Sequence record: OZ335964.1
Length of the DNA: 64,000 bases
Source of the DNA: a phage
Strand: one strand, 5' to 3'
Below the pieces are notes generated by a model that saw nothing but the letters and a program-made list of their open reading frames with translations, was not told where the DNA came from and made no database searches. Position 1 is the first letter of the stretch. The number at the start of each line of letters is the position of its first letter. Position numbers and translations under genes: made by a program. Positions 6,269 through 32,335 of this stretch are shown here, in pieces.

Positions 6269-7093
6269 TTACCATCCTCGCTCTTTACCAATCAAAAATT
6301 CAACTTCACGACGTTTAATGTCTTCTTGAAGGTCTTTAATCTTCTGGCGATCTTGCATGATTTCATCCATCTTGTCAAGTGCCGCAATGAAATCATCGAA
6401 ACGTTCAAAGGTTTTACCTTCATTTGCTTCGCCAAATTTAACCATTGTCAGTCCGTAACGACTACTAAACAGACGTTTCAACTGTCCAACGATCTTAGAA
6501 TCAGTGGTTATAACTTCCAATTCTTCTACTTCACGAAAGAATTTTCTATCAGAATCAATAAACCAGCTAGTTCCTTTATGGTCTCTATCTTCGGTTGCGC
6601 TCATTAGAGTATGGTCTTTACCATCAATTTCAATTACATCAATTTGCCCACATGGACTAACATTTTTAACAGTAAAAGGTCTATAATTTATTGCTCGTGC
6701 AATAACATAATTAAGGTTAGATACGTTTTCAGCATAATGGCAGAAGTCGGTCATAGCATTCGCATCTTTCCAAGTATAAGTTTTACCAACTTCCCATTTC
6801 TGGGGAACTTCTTCAACTTCACGAAAGAATTTTCGATCGAATGGACTAAAGAAATATGTTGCAGTCCAAATGTCTTTTCCTGTAGCAGTTTTCGCCGTAT
6901 GATAAACACCGTCTAGCTCTATTGCATTAATCCAACCGTTACCCTCGATCTCGATGATGGTAAATGGCTTGTCACCAATAGCTGCACTAATATCGCTGTT
7001 AAGTGGAGAAAGAACACCTTCTCCGTTAGTAATAAACTCAGTTTTAGCGTTTTCATCTTTCCAAGTGTAAGTTTTACCAATTTCCCATTTCAT
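6269..7093 (-). CDS. paralog-family protein with two tandem KWEVGKTYTWKD...DRKFFREVEE domains
   Basis: 274 aa; the ~90 aa domain occurs twice in this one protein. Confidence 0.6.
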   Translation of the reverse strand: MKWEIGKTYTWKDENAKTEFITNGEGVLSPLNSDISAAIGDKPFTIIEIEGNGWINAIELDGVYHTAKTATGKDIWTATYFFSPFDRKFFREVEEVPQKWEVGKTYTWKDANAMTDFCHYAENVSNLNYVIARAINYRPFTVKNVSPCGQIDVIEIDGKDHTLMSATEDRDHKGTSWFIDSDRKFFREVEELEVITTDSKIVGQLKRLFSSRYGLTMVKFGEANEGKTFERFDDFIAALDKMDEIMQDRQKIKDLQEDIKRREVEFLIGKERGW

Positions 7094-7105
7094 AATATAT
7101 TCCCC

Positions 7106-7570
7106 TTAACCGATTTTATCAAGTTCGTTTAATGCTTTCTCTGCTTCCTGTATAGCTTGCACCCTTTCCGGCATTTTGTCAAGAAAATCTTTCAACTCTT
7201 CAAAACTGGAGATATGACGCAAGGCGTTAGCACCGATAGCCGCATGTGATTTGCATTCAAAGCGAATTTTATAATTATCCATCGCCAACTTGAGAAGATC
7301 AATTAGTTTAGATTCTTCTGGAATACTAATTTCTTCAAATCTGCTACGGTCGTGATCCAGAAACCAACAAGATAGACCTACATCGGTTGAACTCATATAA
7401 GTTCCATCATGAAGATATACAGATCGCACGTATCCTTTTTTCGCATCAACCGACGCAACTTTAAACGGTAATCGCAGATATTTCAAATAATCAACATCAT
7501 ACCATTTAAAAAATTGGTTTGCATCTTTTACATCTTTCCACGCATAGGTCTTACCAACTTCCCATTTCAT
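7106..7570 (-). CDS. paralog-family protein (single KWEVGKTY domain)
   Basis: ORF track 7106..7585; homologous start MKWEVGK at 7570. Confidence 0.55.
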   Translation of the reverse strand: MKWEVGKTYAWKDVKDANQFFKWYDVDYLKYLRLPFKVASVDAKKGYVRSVYLHDGTYMSSTDVGLSCWFLDHDRSRFEEISIPEESKLIDLLKLAMDNYKIRFECKSHAAIGANALRHISSFEELKDFLDKMPERVQAIQEAEKALNELDKIG

Positions 7571-7574
7571 AATA

Positions 7575-8099
7575 TCATCTCTCATTTTTGATACGTGATT
7601 CTAATTGGATCATACGGTCTCGCGTTTGCTTGTATTCACGGATATTGCCGATCCGGCTAGGCATACCATCAAGCACGCTCTTAATCCCTTCTAGGGTAGT
7701 GATTTTAGCAATGCTATTATGTAACCCCATCTTATCGATCAACTGAATGTCGTAGGCTTCCATAAGCAGACCCAGACGTTCTAAAGTTAGGTCTTCTTTT
7801 TCTTCCGATTCTGGAATCTTAGGTTCAATAGTAACTTCGGTAAAGAAACGACGCTCACCAGCCCAAAACCACACACCGGAAAAGCCAATAGGGGATTCTT
7901 TTAACGTCATAGAGTCGTAACCACTGCCGATAATAGTAATTTCTCTAACATCACCATCATCGTCAATGTCTTCTACCCTAAACGGGCGACCAGCCAACAA
8001 GTCCACAATACGTCTGTTAATAGACGACGAAAATTTAGTCAGTTCGGCTTTCGACGCTTCGCATTCAATCTTGTAAGTTTTACCAACTTCCCATTCCAT
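7575..8099 (-). CDS. paralog-family protein (MEWEVGKTY domain)
   Basis: ORF track starts with GTG at 8108; ATG at 8099 with GAGGTGA RBS. Confidence 0.55.
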   Translation of the reverse strand: MEWEVGKTYKIECEASKAELTKFSSSINRRIVDLLAGRPFRVEDIDDDGDVREITIIGSGYDSMTLKESPIGFSGVWFWAGERRFFTEVTIEPKIPESEEKEDLTLERLGLLMEAYDIQLIDKMGLHNSIAKITTLEGIKSVLDGMPSRIGNIREYKQTRDRMIQLESRIKNER

Positions 8100-8109
8100 A
8101 ATAATCACC

Positions 8110-8613
8110 TCAAATAATTTTCACTGGAATACTATTAACAATCTTGTATTGTACTTGATTGTCAGACCCCCGCCACGGCTTCTTCGTTGGCATATCTTTA
8201 ATATAACGCCCATCGATGAACATGTCAACTGATTCTACAATTTTTCTTTGCTCATCATTCAATTGGTCAAGGGTATAACCGGACCATAGCCAAATATCTT
8301 TATTTGGCATCCATGATTTTACCTCATCGATGATCCGCTGTACACCCTTTAAATTGCGTTTATACAGTGGATCACCACCTAAGAATGTTAGCCCCTGAAT
8401 AAAATCAGGTCTAAGCAGATCCAGAATCAATCCCATTGTATCATCGGTGAATGGTTCCCCGTTCTTAGGATTGAGTAGGCTAGCATTAAAGCAACCATCA
8501 CATGCGTGTGAACATCCGGTAACGTAAAGGGAGACTCTCACTCCCTCACCGTTAACCATATCACAATCTTTAATATCGGCATAGCGTAGTTTGCCGTATG
8601 TATCAGAACTCAT
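8110..8613 (-). CDS. nrdG: anaerobic ribonucleotide reductase activating protein NrdG (radical SAM)
   Basis: CSHACDGC radical-SAM cysteine motif; size and position as T4 NrdG. Confidence 0.85.
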   Translation of the reverse strand: MSSDTYGKLRYADIKDCDMVNGEGVRVSLYVTGCSHACDGCFNASLLNPKNGEPFTDDTMGLILDLLRPDFIQGLTFLGGDPLYKRNLKGVQRIIDEVKSWMPNKDIWLWSGYTLDQLNDEQRKIVESVDMFIDGRYIKDMPTKKPWRGSDNQVQYKIVNSIPVKII

Positions 8614-8755
8614 ATTCAATTACCCCGAACTCGTTTACAATCTGCGCTTTATAGTAACCACCGCGAGATGCCAATAGATAAGCTGGGCTTAGGTATTCGC
8701 ATTCACGGATTTCTACTTGTGCGTTTTCAGTTTCCCAAATCAGTAAAGTCCACAT
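8603..8755 (-). CDS. small hypothetical protein (promoter-stem-loop cassette ORF)
   Basis: ORF track 8603..8830 overlaps the promoter; ATG at 8755 with AGGAGAATCAAAT leader. Confidence 0.35.
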   Translation of the reverse strand: MWTLLIWETENAQVEIRECEYLSPAYLLASRGGYYKAQIVNEFGVIEYEF

Positions 8756-8830: not shown

Positions 8831-9358
8831 TTATTTTAAATTTTTTCGAATGTATTCAGACCATTCTCTGCCAGTAAGTTCGGTCCCATTCTGGAAACTG
8901 AAATACTCATACGGCATCGAGTCAAGATAAAACAGGATCATACATCGCGCCATATAATACCAATCACGATTAAAGTAAACTACGTTATCACCAGTACCAT
9001 CAACCCCTTTATCATAACCATCGCGGGTACGGGCGACCCATTGAATAGTATCATTTTTCTCACGGATCGTAACAGGTTCCCAATATCCAGCACATCCAGC
9101 ATGACCACACGAACAAGTAAGGAAATATTGACCTTTTGCTTTGTTGTCATCCCATTCACGATGGATTGGTTCGATCTCGTGAAACAGTGCTAAGCAATCA
9201 TGATTATGCAACACTGGCTTACCATCAATCAATGCATGGAATGTATACAAACGACCAGTAGACAAATAGCTATCCTCACGCTCAACCAGTTCAATAGCAA
9301 TCTTTTTAGCTCGTTCTTTGTGTCGTTGTGCTTTACGCTTACGGTTTAATGATTTCAT
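8831..9358 (-). CDS. hypothetical protein
   Basis: ORF track 8831..9379 begins with TTG; ATG at 9358 with GAGGTGA RBS. Confidence 0.5.
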   Translation of the reverse strand: MKSLNRKRKAQRHKERAKKIAIELVEREDSYLSTGRLYTFHALIDGKPVLHNHDCLALFHEIEPIHREWDDNKAKGQYFLTCSCGHAGCAGYWEPVTIREKNDTIQWVARTRDGYDKGVDGTGDNVVYFNRDWYYMARCMILFYLDSMPYEYFSFQNGTELTGREWSEYIRKNLK

Positions 9359-9375
9359 ATTCACCTCACACATTA

Positions 9376-9918
9376 TCAAAGGTCGCGATATAGTACATTA
9401 TGAAAATGAGAACTTGCATTACCAATATTGTAGATAATAAATTCTTCATCCGGCGCTTGCGCTACAAATTGAGTATGAGCAACCGCCACAACCTTAAAAA
9501 TACGATCCGTGATCTTGTGTTTAATTTCGGCTCCTACTTCCATAGGAACATATTCATGTGTTTCTGTTTCAGTCGCAAAACAGCCATCTTCTTCATAAGC
9601 ACGAACAAATCGATCGCAATCAGTACGCTTAACAAATTCAAGAGTATACAATTCTCGTGAATTGTCGGTATAGACCAATACAGAATTATTATGATAGCGA
9701 ATCACATACAGGTTATTATCATCGTCAATTACGCAAAAGCTACGGATTCCTTCGCCTATACTCCAGCAGATATTAACCACCGTTCCTCTAATAAAAAAAC
9801 TTTCCTTTAAATTAAAACTAGTCAATGTGCTAGCGTGCATTTTAACAACAACACCATCGCCAATTTCCAGTTTACGAAGTTTAACTTCTTTGCTCAGTAC
9901 ACAAAACATCATCATCAT
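9376..9918 (-). CDS. hypothetical protein
   Basis: 180 aa; ATG run (MMMM) with GAGAGGA RBS; promoter-stem-loop element upstream. Confidence 0.5.
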   Translation of the reverse strand: MMMMFCVLSKEVKLRKLEIGDGVVVKMHASTLTSFNLKESFFIRGTVVNICWSIGEGIRSFCVIDDDNNLYVIRYHNNSVLVYTDNSRELYTLEFVKRTDCDRFVRAYEEDGCFATETETHEYVPMEVGAEIKHKITDRIFKVVAVAHTQFVAQAPDEEFIIYNIGNASSHFHNVLYRDL

Positions 9919-10018: not shown

Positions 10019-11881
10019 TTACATGTGCTTAACGCGGTTTACCATCTCGGAGTGTTTCCCGTGGTTAAATGGACGCAGATCAACAGATCCAAGATATCCA
10101 CTAACGCGCCGGATAACATTCATCTTTTCCAGATTGTCATTGCCGCAATCAGGACAAACAAAACCAGACTCGGTCGCTCTCATTTCCTTAGTAGATCCGC
10201 ATACATGACATACATCAGAAGGAGTATTAACACCGAAGTAATGCAATTTATCCATTGCATAGTCTACTACAGTTTCAAGACCTTTCAGGTTGTTTTTCAT
10301 GTCTGGGAACTCAACATAAGAGATCATGCCACCGGACGCCAGCCAGTGATAATCTTTCTCAAAGTCGATTTTCTCAAACGGTGTGACTTTCCGGTCTACG
10401 TCAAGATGGAATGAGTTGGTGTACCAGTCTTTATCGGTAGCACCCTTAACAATACCAAATTGCTCTCGATCCAGTCGATTAAATCGATAGCAAAGGCTCT
10501 CGGCTGGCGTACCGTAAAGACTAAACCCAAGTCCGGTTTCGTCCTTCCATTTTTCAGTATAATGACGCAAGATCTTAAGAATATGTTTACCGTATCGCTG
10601 CGCATCTTCCGAATCAAACGGATGAACACCAAACAGGACGCTCAATACCTCATGTAAACCAATATATCCAAGAGAGATACTAGCGCGACCATCTTTCAAC
10701 ACTTCCAAAATTTCATCGTTTTGATGAATACGGAAAAATGCACCTTCTGTATACAGCACAGGAGCAACATTGGCTTTAGCCCCTTTTAAAGCGTCTACGC
10801 GACTCATCAGCGCATCAAAGCAAATAGGCATACGATTAGCTAGCTCTTGTTCGAATAGCTCAATTCTGCGCATTACAGACGCTTTACCAGCACGACGCGC
10901 GGCAATAAGAGCAATACGCGGAAGATTCAGAGTCACAACACCTAAGTTATTACGTCCGTCTAATACTTCTTCGCCTTTCTCATTATGCCACACACCCAGG
11001 AAGCTACGACAACCCATCGGGCTAACCGGAACACTAGATCCAGTGATACTACGGTTATTCTTCGCAGAGATATAATCAGGGTAAAGACGCTTACTAGAAC
11101 ATTCCAATGCAAGTTGCTTAATGTCGTAGTTCGGATCTTCCGGTTTAAGGTTTAATCCTTCTTCTAAGAACATCACCAGCTTAGGAAACACCGGAGTGAT
11201 ACCATCTTTACCTAAACCTTTAGTTCGAACGTTCAGGATCGCTTTCTGAATCAGTTTTTCTTCCCAGCTAGTACCCATACCAAAGGTTAAAGTCACAAAA
11301 GGCGTTTGACCGTTGGTAGAGAACAAAGTGTTGATCTCATATTCCAACGCCTGATATCCGTCTAACGTTTCTTTTTCTGTCTTCTCTTGTGCATAGAGAG
11401 TATCAGCTTTGATTCCGTAGGTTTCGGCATCAGCAAGGTGTTTATGATATGTTTTCTCAACATACGGTGCTAACACCTGATCGATGTTTGCAATTGTGGT
11501 CCCGCCATATTGATGACTTGCCACCTGTGCGATAATTTGAGCGGTTACAGCACAAGCAACGCCGATTGATTTCGGACTTTCGATTTGTGCACTACCCAAT
11601 TTAAAACCATTCTCTAACATGTCTTTGAGATTAACAAGACAGCAGTTAGTAAACGGCATAGCGGGTGCATAATCCATATCATGATAATGAATATCACCGT
11701 CTACATGCGCTTTATAGATGTGCTCAGGTAACACGGTTTTAGCAATCTGTTTAGACACAGCACCAGCAATCAGATCTCGACGTGTCGGGAATGTTCGCGC
11801 GTCTTTGTTCGCGTTCTCTTTGCTTACTTCGTTTTCTTTACCCGTTGCGATCTCTGTAATGTCTTTGATTAGTTTTTCCAT
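10019..11881 (-). CDS. nrdD: anaerobic ribonucleoside-triphosphate reductase NrdD (glycyl radical enzyme)
   Basis: 620 aa; C-terminal RVSGYLG glycyl radical motif and CPDCG zinc site. Confidence 0.9.
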   Translation of the reverse strand: MEKLIKDITEIATGKENEVSKENANKDARTFPTRRDLIAGAVSKQIAKTVLPEHIYKAHVDGDIHYHDMDYAPAMPFTNCCLVNLKDMLENGFKLGSAQIESPKSIGVACAVTAQIIAQVASHQYGGTTIANIDQVLAPYVEKTYHKHLADAETYGIKADTLYAQEKTEKETLDGYQALEYEINTLFSTNGQTPFVTLTFGMGTSWEEKLIQKAILNVRTKGLGKDGITPVFPKLVMFLEEGLNLKPEDPNYDIKQLALECSSKRLYPDYISAKNNRSITGSSVPVSPMGCRSFLGVWHNEKGEEVLDGRNNLGVVTLNLPRIALIAARRAGKASVMRRIELFEQELANRMPICFDALMSRVDALKGAKANVAPVLYTEGAFFRIHQNDEILEVLKDGRASISLGYIGLHEVLSVLFGVHPFDSEDAQRYGKHILKILRHYTEKWKDETGLGFSLYGTPAESLCYRFNRLDREQFGIVKGATDKDWYTNSFHLDVDRKVTPFEKIDFEKDYHWLASGGMISYVEFPDMKNNLKGLETVVDYAMDKLHYFGVNTPSDVCHVCGSTKEMRATESGFVCPDCGNDNLEKMNVIRRVSGYLGSVDLRPFNHGKHSEMVNRVKHM

Positions 11882-12450: not shown

Positions 12451-12478
12451 ATTATAGCATACTCCCTTCGCATGTCAA
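12451..12478 (-). promoter_or_regulatory. sigma70-like early promoter with stem-loop (TTGACA-N16-TATAAT)
   Basis: minus strand; hairpin GGGAGTAT..ATACTCCC overlaps spacer and -10. Confidence 0.55.
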
Positions 12479-13653
12479 GCACTAACTTTTTTCTTTACTG
12501 CTTTCACCTTCTGGCGAATTGCTCGAATCTCTTCGATCTCTTTTTCAGTCTCTTTAACAATTTCTTTGCGATTCTGAATATCTGTATCGAGATTATCATC
12601 AAGTTTAGGCAGCATGTCAATCAAGAACTTTTTAAAGTCTTTCAGGTTTCTGATAACAGCACCTTCACCCATTACCGCCACCCCTACACCATCCGGCAGA
12701 TCGCCAAACAGTTTAACCAGTTCAGACAGATGATCATGATCTTCTAGTGCTTCTTCCGGTTCAGATGGCAGTTCAACAAAGTTATAACGTTCATCATTGC
12801 TGATGATGTGATACCAGCAAAGCCCGAATGATTTCGGTGTATATTCTACACCATCAATTTCAACCGAGTCAACACTTCCATAATCATCTACTTTAGTTAC
12901 CTTAAATCCTTGTCCCAGCTTTTGAACAATTTCAACAACATGACTTGATACAGTTTCAGCGGTAAACCAATATGGCAAATTATGCTGATTTGGCTTGTAG
13001 CGTTCACCTACTTTAAATCTCTGACCAGCCGCTTGCATAGCATGAAATTGTTGTTTCGTGATTTCCGCGAAGTATTCAAATTCGCTACCATCAAACAAGC
13101 AATTCCATTGATCACAAAAACGATCCGCCTTGACGGTTTCACCTTTCGCGGTGATCACGGTAGCTGATCCGTGCAATTCTTCTTCAACTAAAAAGCCATA
13201 TTCGACAAAATCGACAAGTTTCATGGCTTCTTTGTGCTCTGGATCATTCTCTCCCCAGAATCGCTTAAATTCTTGCAAACCTTCCGGGGTAAACGAATAA
13301 CATTTACCTTTTTCAAAGTAAGTCGGCATTGCATCCTCTTTCTTGTTCATAGCTTCGTATGCCTCTTTTGAGATACGTTTAAAGTATTTGCGCTCATTGT
13401 GCATAATCATAGTAGCCCAATAATAAACGATATCCTCAGCGGAATAAACTACATCTCCAGCTTCAATAGTAATAACATGACCGTGGTCATCTTTTTCTAA
13501 TACTTTAAAGCCCTTTTCTACGATTTCAGCAACCCGAATATGACCACGGCGCGAAGCATCGGTCAGAATAATTGAATAGCGAGAAAAGTCTAGAAACTCA
13601 TCTTTACCGCCTTCACGGAATGCATAGTAATGACCTTCAAAGAATTTAGCCAT
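12475..13653 (-). CDS. paralog-family protein, multi-domain (ERKYFKRI and DERYNF repeats)
   Basis: 392 aa; repeated FKV..VD..G.V..IE.DG..Y units. Confidence 0.6.
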   Translation of the reverse strand: MAKFFEGHYYAFREGGKDEFLDFSRYSIILTDASRRGHIRVAEIVEKGFKVLEKDDHGHVITIEAGDVVYSAEDIVYYWATMIMHNERKYFKRISKEAYEAMNKKEDAMPTYFEKGKCYSFTPEGLQEFKRFWGENDPEHKEAMKLVDFVEYGFLVEEELHGSATVITAKGETVKADRFCDQWNCLFDGSEFEYFAEITKQQFHAMQAAGQRFKVGERYKPNQHNLPYWFTAETVSSHVVEIVQKLGQGFKVTKVDDYGSVDSVEIDGVEYTPKSFGLCWYHIISNDERYNFVELPSEPEEALEDHDHLSELVKLFGDLPDGVGVAVMGEGAVIRNLKDFKKFLIDMLPKLDDNLDTDIQNRKEIVKETEKEIEEIRAIRQKVKAVKKKVSA

Positions 13654-13684
13654 AATATAATCCTCTCGTTGTTTAGACGGGAGT

Positions 13685-13713
13685 ATCTTACTACTCCCGT
13701 TTCATCATGTCAA
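13685..13713 (-). promoter_or_regulatory. sigma70-like early promoter with stem-loop (TTGACA-N17-TAAGAT)
   Basis: minus strand; hairpin ACGGGAGTA..TACTCCCGT. Confidence 0.45.
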
Positions 13714-14276
13714 GCGTTAAATGACTTTTGGATCTCTTTCAGTTCAGCTACTTTATCGGCGCTGAATTTAGCGTAGGTATCATGTCGAATAATTTCACTT
13801 TCAAGAAAGGTTTCCAGCCGAGATCTATTTTCAATAAGGAACTCTTTCAGGTCTTCCGCGTTCTTGATAAAGATTTTATTGTCGGTAATGTCATCTTCAA
13901 TCGCAAAGGAGATAGAGCGAACTTTACCAAACAAGTTAATCAGATCTTCCAGAGATTCTTCTTTCTTAACTGGTTTCATTTCTTCAAACTGCTTTTTAGT
14001 GATGCGTTTAAAGTATTTGCGCTCGTTTGCAGCAATCAGAACAGATGCACCTTCATACTCATGAGTTTCTACCAGATACACACGACCCATCGCATCAACA
14101 GTGAGAACTTTAAAGCCGTTACAAAGCACGTCATACAAGAACTTATTATGTTGCGGACATCGTTTGATAAATTCCTCTGCGGACTCAGCATTACGGAAAG
14201 TGTAATAACGACCTCGTTCAAAAACAGCATCAGTTGAAGACTTAGCCGGATACAATTTATACGTTTTCTGTACCAT
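13710..14276 (-). CDS. paralog-family protein (ANERKYFKRI domain)
   Basis: ORF track 13710..14294; ATG at 14276 with GAGGATTATATT leader. Confidence 0.55.
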   Translation of the reverse strand: MVQKTYKLYPAKSSTDAVFERGRYYTFRNAESAEEFIKRCPQHNKFLYDVLCNGFKVLTVDAMGRVYLVETHEYEGASVLIAANERKYFKRITKKQFEEMKPVKKEESLEDLINLFGKVRSISFAIEDDITDNKIFIKNAEDLKEFLIENRSRLETFLESEIIRHDTYAKFSADKVAELKEIQKSFNA

Positions 14277-23078: not shown

Positions 23079-25217
23079 TTAAGGATTTCGGCCAGGGTAA
23101 TGCTTAAATCGACCGTAACCAGTTTCAATGCTCATATCTCGTTGACGCACAATCGCCCAATAACCGTTGCAGGAATCTTGAAGATATAGATCCTTACCTT
23201 TTAGGAACTCATTAAAAATAGTGATCTGCCAATCATAATAGACCGCATCAGCAAGACTACCCATCCAACCGTGCGGATCTTCCATCAGTTCGACAAGTTC
23301 ATCAATTACCCAATATGGACAAGGGCTAAATTTACCCTTACTAAAATCGCTGAACATAGTAACGATCTTGACTTCCGGTCGAGGCTGATCGGGAATATCT
23401 GGACGTTTGTTAACTACGACTTGCACATATTTTGTGTAGCCTACAATTTCACCTTCATCTAAGTTAGTGTTATTGTTTTTGTCGGCAAATGCAACAAATT
23501 TGTAAACACCAGAATCATTTAATGTTGCATTAGCTTTACGATATACCGGAACACTGGAATCTGCAATAGGTAATTTAATACCACTTTTACTAAATTCATA
23601 GGTCGGCACATAGTTAGATGGCGGTTTAATCATGGTTGCTTCCAGCACCAACGGATCACCCTCAGTAATTTGCACCGGATGCGGACCGTCAAATTCCATA
23701 TTAGGAATTACTTCAACTTTATAGGTTGCACGTCCTGCAATATCATATCCGGTATGCGCACTATGAGGATCTCGGCTAGGACTATCGCGATATTCATGCG
23801 ACCAGATACCATTATGTTCTTTATCCGCCGCATCAGTGATCTTATATTCTTTCGTTTCAATCGGCAATTCTGTTACAAGAACATCGTTTTTCAAAATTGC
23901 TAACGAACGAGTTTGAGTCGGATCATTACTTGCTGGAGGTTCTGGATCAACAATTTTAATAACAATAGGTTCCCCAACCTCAATACCGCTATAATCATGC
24001 TCGACGTCATAGATATCTAACATACGGCGATCATAAAATAACGGGCGAGAAGTTGGAGTTCTCTGCGGATCATCATCACGCGCAGGAGCTACCAACAATT
24101 GCAGGGCTACACTATTATCATATTGCAATTTCTCAAGACTAATACGGTCATAACCAGGATCACCATATTTCTTGCTTTGTAATTGCGTACCACCTAACAT
24201 CCACGTAAAGTAGACATTATTTGTTAATAAACCATAATGTCGGTTCCATGAATTATCAACAGGGGAAACTGGCATATCAATACTAACAGAAGACCCAGAA
24301 GGATAACGAAATTCAATAGCAGAAAAATCTCGGCTAAAAAATTCGTTTTCCTTGACGTTAACGCGGAATCGATGGCGCTGACCTTCCAGATACGATTCAC
24401 TACTACCAGGACCATTTTCAACCTTATAGGAACGAATACAAGCGACATAATCACCTGCATCTGCTTCGGTAGCATGTTTCGTCACATATAAAGTTTTATT
24501 CTTTGATTCATAAACCAAAGTACCATCGCCACGTTCCAGACGATAACGAACTATGGTATGTTCAGCGTCATTTGGGGCATCGTCTTCTACAGTATAATAG
24601 GCAGGTGCATATTTTTGTACATTGAATACAGCTAAATTTTCTCGAATTGTTGCTGTAAACGGATATACAAATTTAACATCACCTGTTTCGTCGCTTAATT
24701 CCATTCGATAAAGACCGGAAAATTCAGGCCATGCGAATTTTGCAATTTTAAATTCACGATGGTCCAATCCCAAATCACCATCTACGGAATCAACTAGACC
24801 ATTATTATAATACAAGTCAACAGAGATATTAGCAGGAATATTACTACGAAAAACAATTTTCGCTTTAAGTTCATCACCAATATTAAATGATGTCGGAGGA
24901 TATACATGTTCAACATATGGATTATCAAATAACTTAAATGTAAAGTTTTCCGTGCCAATATCGATAGAATCACCACTAAATGATGTGTCGCCTAGCGCAT
25001 AACCTCGAACGTTTACAGACCATCCGGTAACATCGTCTTCTTTAACGGAATCCAATGTAAATGTCGGAGAGGCACTTGTTGCTATAATCTGGTCATTTTT
25101 CTTCCAGACATAACCTTTTTTCGGTTTTGTTGAATCAGGGCTTTCATCAACAATACAGCAGCTAAAATCGTGCGGCATCCAAATCATATTATTGACCGTG
25201 GTGTTTACTACTGCCAT
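23079..25217 (-). CDS. large protein with Ig-like domain signatures (possible virion decoration or adhesin)
   Basis: 712 aa; DxGxYxC-type Ig motifs (EADAGDYVACI, LNDSGVYKFVAF); strong AGGAGGATTC RBS; own terminator. Confidence 0.55.
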   Translation of the reverse strand: MAVVNTTVNNMIWMPHDFSCCIVDESPDSTKPKKGYVWKKNDQIIATSASPTFTLDSVKEDDVTGWSVNVRGYALGDTSFSGDSIDIGTENFTFKLFDNPYVEHVYPPTSFNIGDELKAKIVFRSNIPANISVDLYYNNGLVDSVDGDLGLDHREFKIAKFAWPEFSGLYRMELSDETGDVKFVYPFTATIRENLAVFNVQKYAPAYYTVEDDAPNDAEHTIVRYRLERGDGTLVYESKNKTLYVTKHATEADAGDYVACIRSYKVENGPGSSESYLEGQRHRFRVNVKENEFFSRDFSAIEFRYPSGSSVSIDMPVSPVDNSWNRHYGLLTNNVYFTWMLGGTQLQSKKYGDPGYDRISLEKLQYDNSVALQLLVAPARDDDPQRTPTSRPLFYDRRMLDIYDVEHDYSGIEVGEPIVIKIVDPEPPASNDPTQTRSLAILKNDVLVTELPIETKEYKITDAADKEHNGIWSHEYRDSPSRDPHSAHTGYDIAGRATYKVEVIPNMEFDGPHPVQITEGDPLVLEATMIKPPSNYVPTYEFSKSGIKLPIADSSVPVYRKANATLNDSGVYKFVAFADKNNNTNLDEGEIVGYTKYVQVVVNKRPDIPDQPRPEVKIVTMFSDFSKGKFSPCPYWVIDELVELMEDPHGWMGSLADAVYYDWQITIFNEFLKGKDLYLQDSCNGYWAIVRQRDMSIETGYGRFKHYPGRNP

Positions 25218-30759: not shown

Positions 30760-30801
30760 AATTAAACCCTCAGTTGATTAAGAGATTGCATCATATCATC
30801 A

Positions 30802-30835
30802 TAAAACGAAAAAGCCAACCCTTTTCGGATTGGCT
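30802..30835 (-). terminator. intrinsic terminator after GrcA-like gene
   Basis: AGCCAAUCC..GGGUUGGCU hairpin + U-run on minus strand. Confidence 0.65.
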
Positions 30836-30845
30836 TGATGAAAAA

Positions 30846-31262
30846 TTAGAGAGATTCGGTAAAGGTGCGCGAAATAACATCACGTTGTTGGTCTGGAGTC
30901 AGACTATTGAATCTTACGGCATATCCGCTAACGCGAATGGTTAGTTGCGGATACTTATCAGGATTAGCAACCGCATCAAGAAGAAGATCGCGACTCATCA
31001 CATTGATATTCGCGTGCTGACCTCCTTCGACAACCGGAGCACCAGTATCTACAATAACAGGACGGAAGCTAGTTGTGTGCAGTGCCAGCGAATCGACGTC
31101 TTCTGCGGTGATCACATGGTCTTCTGCGAAAGTTTTACTAACAATTACTTTAGCGCCGATCAGTGCTTTCGGTTCGGATACCAGAATCATAGGCGCGAAA
31201 TGTCCACCAATAATAGTACCTTTATGCTCACCTTTCATGATTTGAATTGCTTTAAATTCCAT
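30846..31262 (-). CDS. grcA: autonomous glycyl radical cofactor GrcA/YfiD-like protein
   Basis: 138 aa; C-terminus [33 protein letters not shown] matches remembered E. coli GrcA/PflB glycyl radical domain. Confidence 0.85.
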
Positions 31263-31397
31263 AATTCACCTCTTATAGATCAGGACGTTCGTCATTAATT
31301 TTACCAACCAAAACACCATAGAGTTTATCAGGTTGGACTTTACGATTCTTATTGATTGTAGCACGAAATCGACGAGCTACGCTATCTTTATTTTTCA

Positions 31398-31883
31398 TCA
31401 GTTGATACCTAAGCCAATGAAAATAGGTTGGTCTTCTACATTACCCATTCCAACACTACGTCGATTTAATTCTAAAAACTGCAATACGCTGTCAGTAAAT
31501 CCGCGCATGGTAGTATCTAGGATAAAAATTGTTTTGTCAAGACTACGACCTCGCCAAGTGATCGGATTCAGGAAAGTTCGGATCGACGTGCAATCTACAT
31601 TTGAAATGTTGACATTTTCACCGCGACCGCGATCTCGGATCGTTTTGGCATGTTCCCGCGTCGTTGAAACGATAAAGACACTATAGCCCTTTCGCGTATA
31701 ATGGTCATATAACTTGATTGTAGCGTCTGTATGCCCTGTCTGACGGCCTAAATTGATTGAGACAATGGAATCTAGGTCATCAGCAAAATTGCGTCGCTTA
31801 CGACGTTCTATGATGTCATTTACGGCAGATACACACGCAGCATAAATCAAATCTTTACTTTCTAATTTTACATCAATATTCAT
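31398..31883 (-). CDS. hypothetical protein
   Basis: 161 aa ATG-initiated ORF. Confidence 0.5.
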   Translation of the reverse strand: MNIDVKLESKDLIYAACVSAVNDIIERRKRRNFADDLDSIVSINLGRQTGHTDATIKLYDHYTRKGYSVFIVSTTREHAKTIRDRGRGENVNISNVDCTSIRTFLNPITWRGRSLDKTIFILDTTMRGFTDSVLQFLELNRRSVGMGNVEDQPIFIGLGIN

Positions 31884-31945
31884 GGTAAAGTCTCCAGTGA
31901 ACGGGGAGAGATCCTTAGATTGTCTCCCCGTTGATGGTTAATATT

Positions 31946-32335
31946 TTATTTTGGATCTGGGTATTTGCTGTGTGGCAATTGTAGATGAGGACCATCTTTA
32001 AACGATACCCAATCCCCACCCCATTCAACAGGAACACCCAATTCTCGACCAGCTTGTTTAAATGCATCAGCGATCATGCGGTAATATTTCATGTTCCATG
32101 TATCCTTATCTTTCGGATACGCTACAACGTCAACCGCGAAACCGTGAAGATGACGAGATTTCATAGTCTTAGATTTACCTTCCGCAACATATTTCTTTTG
32201 CGTTTCTAGACTACGCACACCTTCCGTAATACCAAAATCGACCGGAGTCAGTTCTAATGCACGATGAACGACTTTTACCAGGTCTGGATGTACACCAACA
32301 AGCCGATCTTTGCTTCTTTGAGATAATTTAAACAT
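31946..32335 (-). CDS. peptidase M15 (LAS metallopeptidase, VanY-like) - probable endolysin
   Basis: 129 aa; SRHLHGFAVDV...DGPHLQL zinc ligands; occupies the position of T4 e. Confidence 0.7.
   Translation of the reverse strand: MFKLSQRSKDRLVGVHPDLVKVVHRALELTPVDFGITEGVRSLETQKKYVAEGKSKTMKSRHLHGFAVDVVAYPKDKDTWNMKYYRMIADAFKQAGRELGVPVEWGGDWVSFKDGPHLQLPHSKYPDPK

Follow-up and report, generated by a model that had tools for sequence, protein, structure and literature searches.

A predicted autonomous glycyl radical cofactor of the T4 vs.6/Y06I type in a Krischvirus genome

Background

The E. coli protein YfiD, also known as GrcA, and the phage T4 protein Y06I, the product of gene vs.6, were shown to be autonomous glycyl radical cofactors by Wagner et al. 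2001 (BBRC 285:456), as recounted in PMC8683613. Both proteins are radicalised by the activase of pyruvate formate-lyase (PFL) and are able to reconstitute PFL that has been fragmented by oxygen (PMC8683613). YfiD and Y06I are the only spare parts of this kind that have been validated (PMC8683613). Residues 61-127 of GrcA share the fold of PFL residues 693-759, while the N-terminal half of GrcA is disordered and is required for the binding of cleaved PFL as well as for efficient installation of the radical (PMC8683613). In addition, proteins of the GrcA type bind to PFL and are competitors for the activase that serves it (PMC8683613).

In the study of Nolan et al. 2006 vs.6 was found to be conserved in six out of six T4-like genomes, including that of RB49, and to match the Gly_radical domain, and a role in nucleotide metabolism was guessed for it (PMC1524935). 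Beyond this study and the papers on Y06I, our literature search found nothing on phage-encoded grcA.

Here we describe the vs.6 gene of a stretch of phage DNA of 64,000 nucleotides (sequence record OZ335964.1), which is called the window in the following and to which all positions refer unless stated otherwise. An earlier note on this DNA had proposed that the gene encodes a GrcA/YfiD-like autonomous glycyl radical cofactor, that it occurs alongside NrdD and NrdG and that it may maintain the PFL of the host during infection. The gene type is already known, as the function of the T4 gene was worked out in 2001 and close relatives are labelled GrcA in GenBank; as one more copy of a known phage gene it therefore has small weight as a discovery. 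Its value lies in correct annotation, since many Krischvirus records call the gene product hypothetical or mislabel it as pyruvate formate-lyase or acetyltransferase-related.

Gene organisation and expression signals

The vs.6 (grcA-like) gene is located on the minus strand at positions 30846-31262 and encodes a protein of 138 amino acids followed by a stop codon; it is present in the list of open reading frames and matches phrog_1209, Pfam Gly_radical and the GrcA structure in the PDB. The boundaries of the reading frame coincide exactly with positions 30846 and 31262, stop codon included, and the strand, which had not been given before, can now be added. A strong Shine-Dalgarno sequence, AAGAGGTG (31267-31274, minus strand), was read from the sequence 4 nt 5' of the ATG. 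On the other side of the gene, 10 nt past the stop codon, a terminator scan identified an intrinsic terminator (30802-30836, minus strand) which consists of a GC-rich hairpin with a 10-bp stem, AAGCCAATCC / GGGTTGGCTT, and a subsequent T-run (TTTCGTTTT). This hairpin is kept in every Krischvirus locus that was compared.

Upstream of vs.6 two co-oriented genes are tightly packed (31273-31883, minus strand), namely a vs.8 homolog (31398-31883) and an ORF of 41 amino acids (31273-31398), which match phrog_1488 and phrog_13848 and whose stop and start codons overlap. The two genes and vs.6 probably share one transcript. No site with the late-promoter motif of T4, TATAAATA, was found near vs.6, and the sigma-70-like promoter matches located inside vs.8 are resemblances to the consensus and nothing more.

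Read along the minus strand, the gene order is an endolysin of the L-alanyl-D-glutamate peptidase type, the vs.8 homolog, the 41-aa ORF, vs.6 and nrdC.11, the latter being an RlaP-type nucleotidyltransferase gene, followed by three small ORFs and then by regB, vs.1 (with an SLT domain) and vs. Approximately 20 kb around vs.6 show 96% identity to Krischvirus genomes (JK32, JSE, Phi1).

Three minor observations concern the region upstream of vs.8. The endolysin (31946-32335, minus strand) belongs to Peptidase_M15_4 and is an L-alanyl-D-glutamate peptidase of the T5-like kind, not an e-type lysozyme as in T4. Between the endolysin gene and vs.8, JSE and FL04 carry a gene for an HNH-AP2 homing endonuclease, which is absent from the window. 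The same interval of the window contains a strong hairpin without a T-run (ACGGGGAGA...TCTCCCCGT, 31895-31935, minus strand), which may be an RNA processing or stability element or a weak terminator.

Domain architecture and family membership

Residues 78-138 (30849-31031, minus strand) constitute the predicted glycyl radical domain, which is collinear with PflB residues 700-760, counted from the start codon of the gene (699-759 in PDB numbering), and which matches the structured half of GrcA. Within this domain the motif RVSGYAV (R110-V116) is intact, and Gly113, encoded by the GGA codon at 30924-30926 (minus strand), is the predicted radical glycine. It is equivalent to G734 of PflB, stands at the position of G102 of GrcA and occupies an invariant column of the alignment. 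The N-terminal half, residues 1-77 (31032-31262, minus strand), corresponds to that of T4 vs.6 and appears to be homologous to that of GrcA as well, as judged from the alignments.

The earlier note had stated that the C-terminal 33 residues are nearly identical to the glycyl radical domain of GrcA and PflB, and this is borne out, 31 of the 33 residues being identical in E. coli GrcA and 27 in PflB. The alignment to both proteins, which the note had proposed as a check, gave 49/61 identical residues for GrcA (80%) and 46/61 for PflB (75%) over the last 61 residues, the corresponding value for TdcE being 45/61. In BLASTP against full-length PflB the match covers residues 78-138 with an E value of 2e-32 and 95% positives. 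Similarity is thus found on proper alignment, and Gly113 and its motif are present in the sequence.

Profile searches gave a consistent picture. Pfam Gly_radical matched residues 77-119 with 56.8 bits (cut-off 22.2, E 3.8e-15), covering profile positions 64-106 of 106, and the Pfam search of the 138-aa protein found no second domain. With phmmer against the PDB, GrcA (6OWR) was obtained with E 1.1e-29 and PFL (1H16) with E 9e-26. The match to phrog_1209, the phage vs.6/Y06I family, was a full-length one, in which residues 3-138 correspond to profile positions 1-121 of 121 (E 4e-48, 163.6 bits). An alignment of nine homologs from T4-like phages, T5-like phages, a Vibrio phage and E. coli indicated homology over the whole length; all of its 32 invariant columns are retained in the window protein. 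The segment A37-V52 aligns with ARCIVAKAGYAEDEV of GrcA, and the extreme N-terminus aligns loosely, with one invariant Gln.

The GrcA family (IPR011140, TIGR04365) comprises stand-alone proteins of about 14 kDa in which no domain can be recognised apart from the C-terminal portion of a glycyl radical domain. Both this architecture and the family motif were found in the window protein. The GrcA equivalog model TIGR04365 matches only residues 37-138 and scores 128.3 bits, below its cut-off of 170; E. coli GrcA reached 234.0 bits in the same test and T4 Y06I 151.1 bits, which also lies under 170. As the validated Y06I itself falls below the threshold, the cut-off delimits bacterial GrcA and not the function. 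Membership among the full-length enzymes of the PFL/TdcE type is contradicted by the length of 138 aa and by the fact that models of the PFL family match over their last 60 or so positions only. An NrdD-type radical domain does not apply either, as there are no cysteines before the radical loop and hence no zinc ribbon. The most precise classification, as far as it can be drawn from sequence, is therefore that of a phage autonomous glycyl radical cofactor of the vs.6/Y06I type.

A single-sequence AlphaFold2 model had a mean pLDDT of 42.3 and was uninformative; the fold of the C-terminal half is nevertheless fixed by its sequence identity to the solved structures 6OWR and 1H16. Among six Krischvirus orthologs dN/dS values ranged from 0.09 to 0.24 in both halves, and the gene is thus under purifying selection in this group.

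Comparison with T4 vs.6, GrcA and PflB

The gene is the ortholog of T4 vs.6 (Y06I), as concluded from its place beside vs.8 in a Krischvirus (RB49/JSE-like) genome, and its product is homologous to GrcA/YfiD of E. coli. The identification made in the earlier note is upheld in this more specific form, with homology to GrcA that appears to extend over the full length and synteny to the T4 gene. T4 vs.6 (NP_049730.1), which bears the RefSeq name "autonomous glycyl radical cofactor GrcA", is 53% identical to the window protein (E 1e-43). Both proteins belong to phrog_1209, have the same two-part architecture and an identical motif, and are encoded in the conserved tk-vs-regB early region. The T4 order vs.8, vs.7, vs.6, ..., regB, vs.1, vs, tk.4 is comparable to that of the window, while JSE and Phi1 are identical to the window in this respect. 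In the window, JSE and Phi1 vs.8 lies directly upstream of vs.6, whereas T4 has vs.7 in between, and the downstream neighbour is nrdC.11 in the window but vs.5 in T4. The window protein is also longer than that of T4 (138 versus 120 aa); its N-terminal half has two insertions, one of about 12 and one of about 5 residues, which are specific to Krischviruses.

The window protein and E. coli GrcA (6OWR) can be aligned over 104 residues with 60% identity (E 1e-39), and both have the radical glycine. They are small stand-alone proteins whose C-terminal half mimics PFL residues 693-759 and whose N-terminal half appears to be of the recognition type. They differ in that the first 36 or so residues of the window protein match GrcA weakly and that the equivalog score lies below the cut-off. 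Furthermore, the window protein is encoded by a lytic phage and is therefore beyond regulation by the host itself. The similarity to PflB and TdcE is collinear up to the very C-terminus and corresponds to the piece that PFL loses, or that is displaced from it, once oxygen has cut the chain at G734. As the barrel of about 700 residues and the catalytic cysteines are missing, the window protein cannot act as an enzyme by itself.

The radical domains of the window protein and of Y06I are not equally close to that of GrcA. In T4 Y06I 59 of 61 residues are identical to GrcA, while the window protein has 49 of 61 (12 of 61 differ), and at the nucleotide level the radical tract is 98% identical to grcA in T4 and 68% in the window.

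Within the Krischviruses, the vs.6 products deposited in GenBank (JSE, Phi1, RB49, kvi, JK32, 011D4) show 92-98% protein identity to that of the window, with phage 011D4 at 97.8%, and the copies of kvi, JK32 and Skers already bear the annotation "autonomous glycyl radical cofactor". The exact allele of 138 aa was found neither in the phage collection nor in the collection of 15 billion proteins that were searched. On a wider scale, 1580 phage records with a vs.6 homolog were detected by tblastn (T4-like, T5-like, Vibrio phages and others), many of the homologs being annotated as GrcA, and the family occurs widely among T4-like and T5-like phages of enterobacteria.

Divergence of the radical domain and homing endonucleases

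Comparison of the Krischvirus loci (L001, L007-L010, L015, L016) over window positions 30850-31080, the 3' half of vs.6, and 30760-30845 revealed a sharp hot spot of divergence which is confined to the radical-domain portion of vs.6. The first 228 nt of vs.6 and several kb on both sides are 95-100% identical among Krischviruses. In the last 183 nt, on the other hand, the type found in JSE and the window shares 73-85% identity with the types of Phi1 and kvi, and the type of FL04 and JK32, in which the loop reads RISGYAT, 64-70%. At least three strongly diverged allele types, as well as mosaics of them, exist. The window allele combines a radical domain of the JSE type with the last 25 nt or so (the last two residues) and the intergenic region of the Phi1 type, and in the mosaic vs.6 of kvi the breakpoint lies further upstream.

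Just past the terminator hairpin, JSE, 011D4 and Whisky carry a gene for a homing endonuclease of the HNH_3/NUMOD4 type, the JSE type being present in four records. A second, different HNH/NUMOD4 gene occupies the same site in FL04, JK32, G37-3, MIZ4 and others (the FL04/JK32 type, nine records), and in the window, KFS-EC, kvi and Phi1 there is no such gene at this position. The association between endonuclease and allele is not absolute, as KFS-EC and the window have an allele of the JSE type without an endonuclease gene. Taken together, the distribution of alleles may reflect recombination and co-conversion next to a site of homing endonucleases.

The vs.6 gene of T4 is chimeric. When the T4 gene (locus L002, positions 13558-13920 therein) was compared with E. 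coli K-12 grcA (locus L003, positions 8067-8450 therein), the last 178 nt or so were 98.3% identical (175/178), whereas the upstream part was 46% identical. A tract with 175 of 178 nucleotides in common implies that T4 recombined with the host gene very recently, and the Y06I protein that was tested biochemically consequently carries what is essentially the radical domain of the host.

These observations led us to consider, as a tentative idea that we think has less than an even chance of being correct, that the radical-domain segment is an exchangeable cassette with an allele turnover driven by endonucleases, a re-tuning through recombination with host and phage genes, and alleles specialised for their targets. 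In detail, the homing endonucleases may target the conserved sequence of the radical motif and thereby drive the turnover of alleles. Recombination with the host or with other phages may have re-tuned the segment repeatedly, and a specialisation of the divergent alleles for separate targets of the PFL type is conceivable. If true, such a turnover would be a neat case of an auxiliary metabolic gene that is shaped by recombination linked to homing endonucleases and to the host.

Proposed function and alternative explanations

In our opinion vs.6 very probably provides the phage with its own autonomous glycyl radical cofactor for the repair of host PFL that has been cleaved by oxygen. Our basis for this is homology, the intact motif, synteny, purifying selection and the expression signals. 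Trace oxygen would cleave active host PFL at the radical glycine G734, with loss of the C-terminal 26 residues. The phage protein would then bind the damaged enzyme, with its N-terminal half serving recognition, and its C-terminal 61-67 residues would replace the strand, the radical loop and the helix of PFL in the region of residues 693-759. The host activase PflA would put a new radical on Gly113, so that pyruvate could again be converted to acetyl-CoA and formate and fermentative ATP be supplied via Pta-AckA. No activase of the PFL type was found among the subset of window ORFs scanned, and NrdG, the one radical-SAM activase identified in the window, scores 27 bits on the PflA model (cut-off 232); activation is thus presumably performed by PflA of the host.

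A rationale for a phage-borne copy might be seen in the shut-off of host expression by T4-type phages, after which no new PflB or GrcA would be made; a copy of its own could allow the phage to keep the production of fermentative acetyl-CoA and ATP going under fluctuating oxygen. The Krischvirus variant is accordingly inferred to act as Y06I and YfiD do and to help the phage in habitats that are low in oxygen, e.g. the gut. Since the biochemistry of Y06I has already been worked out, including the restoration of oxygen-cleaved PFL (PMC8683613), the maintenance of host PFL suggested by the earlier note is the established interpretation and not a new one. The transfer of function to the window protein has to be made with some caution, because the radical domain of the validated Y06I is nearly that of E. 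coli GrcA itself and the domain encoded in the window is more diverged, the insertions in the N-terminal half being a further difference.

A connection to the anaerobic ribonucleotide reductase has been suggested by the role in nucleotide metabolism that Nolan et al. 2006 derived from the shared Pfam domain (PMC1524935), and the earlier note placed the gene alongside NrdD and NrdG. Both of these are indeed encoded in the window: NrdD, the class III anaerobic ribonucleotide reductase, at 10019-11881 on the minus strand (Pfam NRDD E 2e-175; NF006732 879.8 bits, cut-off 657) and its activase NrdG, with the motif CSHACDGC, at 8110-8619 on the minus strand (TIGR02491 165.9 bits, cut-off 126.1; phrog_626). 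They do not belong to the vs.6 unit, however, but lie at a distance of 19-22 kb from vs.6, and are thus not adjacent to it. In principle vs.6 could be a spare part or accessory of the phage NrdD which is activated by the phage NrdG and serves nucleotide metabolism, all the more as vs.6 and NrdD have the pentapeptide RVSGY in common, which surrounds the radical glycine, and the phage groups with vs.6 homologs also have NrdD, for which there are 2913 phage records, T4-like and T5-like phages among them. Yet BLASTP of vs.6 against the NrdD of the window itself was not significant (E 0.56), with RVSGY as the only part in common; the radical loop of NrdD is preceded by a zinc ribbon (CHVC...CPDC) which vs.6 does not have, whereas the vs.6 domain is 75% identical to the C-terminus of PflB and collinear with it. 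Moreover, nrdD and vs.6 lie 19 kb apart, the homolog in a T5-like phage sits among tRNA genes, and for T4 Y06I it is PFL, together with the PFL activase, that has been demonstrated as the partner (PMC8683613). We therefore consider a function for NrdD very unlikely and reject it on sequence grounds. As NrdD is found in the same phage groups without a sequence tie to vs.6, the link is one of co-occurrence in the genome, which reads as a shared low-oxygen lifestyle rather than as a functional pair. Enterobacterial T4-like and T5-like phages would in this sense carry a low-oxygen kit consisting of NrdD, NrdG and the PFL spare part.

Two further explanations were considered. The competition of GrcA-type proteins for the activase and their binding to PFL, as mentioned above (PMC8683613), would also be compatible with a decoy or modulator which soaks up PflA or occupies PFL, be it damaged or full-length and inactive, and redirects the flux of pyruvate. 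The unusual variability of the radical domain between close relatives, with RISGYAT in FL04 and JK32, could likewise reflect something else than a conserved repair function. This explanation appears unlikely to us, since the radical glycine, the loop and all invariant positions are kept in the window protein, dN/dS is low, and T4 Y06I restores PFL activity and does not inhibit it (PMC8683613). Even less probable, and in fact the least credible of the explanations considered, is a passenger without function, i.e. a recently captured fragment of host pflB, tdcE or grcA. The E. coli matches listed for the nucleotide sequence are confined to the 3' ends of pflB and tdcE, and the T4 copy has recently exchanged sequence with host grcA. 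The tract in the window, however, has 68-69% nucleotide identity to grcA, pflB and tdcE, and the gene is a full-length one with an N-terminal half of the phage type and relatives in 1580 phage records across several genera. Purifying selection as well as its own ribosome-binding site and terminator also argue against a passenger. On account of the low nucleotide identity to the host genes a recent host fragment is rejected for the window, while it does hold for part of the T4 gene. The repair of oxygen-cleaved host PFL thus remains the preferred explanation.

Other reading frames on the same strand

Several ORFs seen in the course of the analysis may be of use for annotation. A reading frame of 712 aa (23079-25217, minus strand) has no Pfam or NCBIfam match, and its C-terminal 200 or so residues alone give weak PHROG matches, to Hoc-like head decoration and to tail proteins. 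Between nrdD and nrdG, two ORFs of 180 and 182 aa are located at 8831-9918 (minus strand; phrog_14838, phrog_8242). Around the two genes, at 6269-8108 and 12475-13653 (minus strand), several neighbouring ORFs with the repeated N-terminal motif W-E-V/I-G-K-T-Y-x-W-K-D are present, one of which contains it twice, and these look like a small paralogous family.
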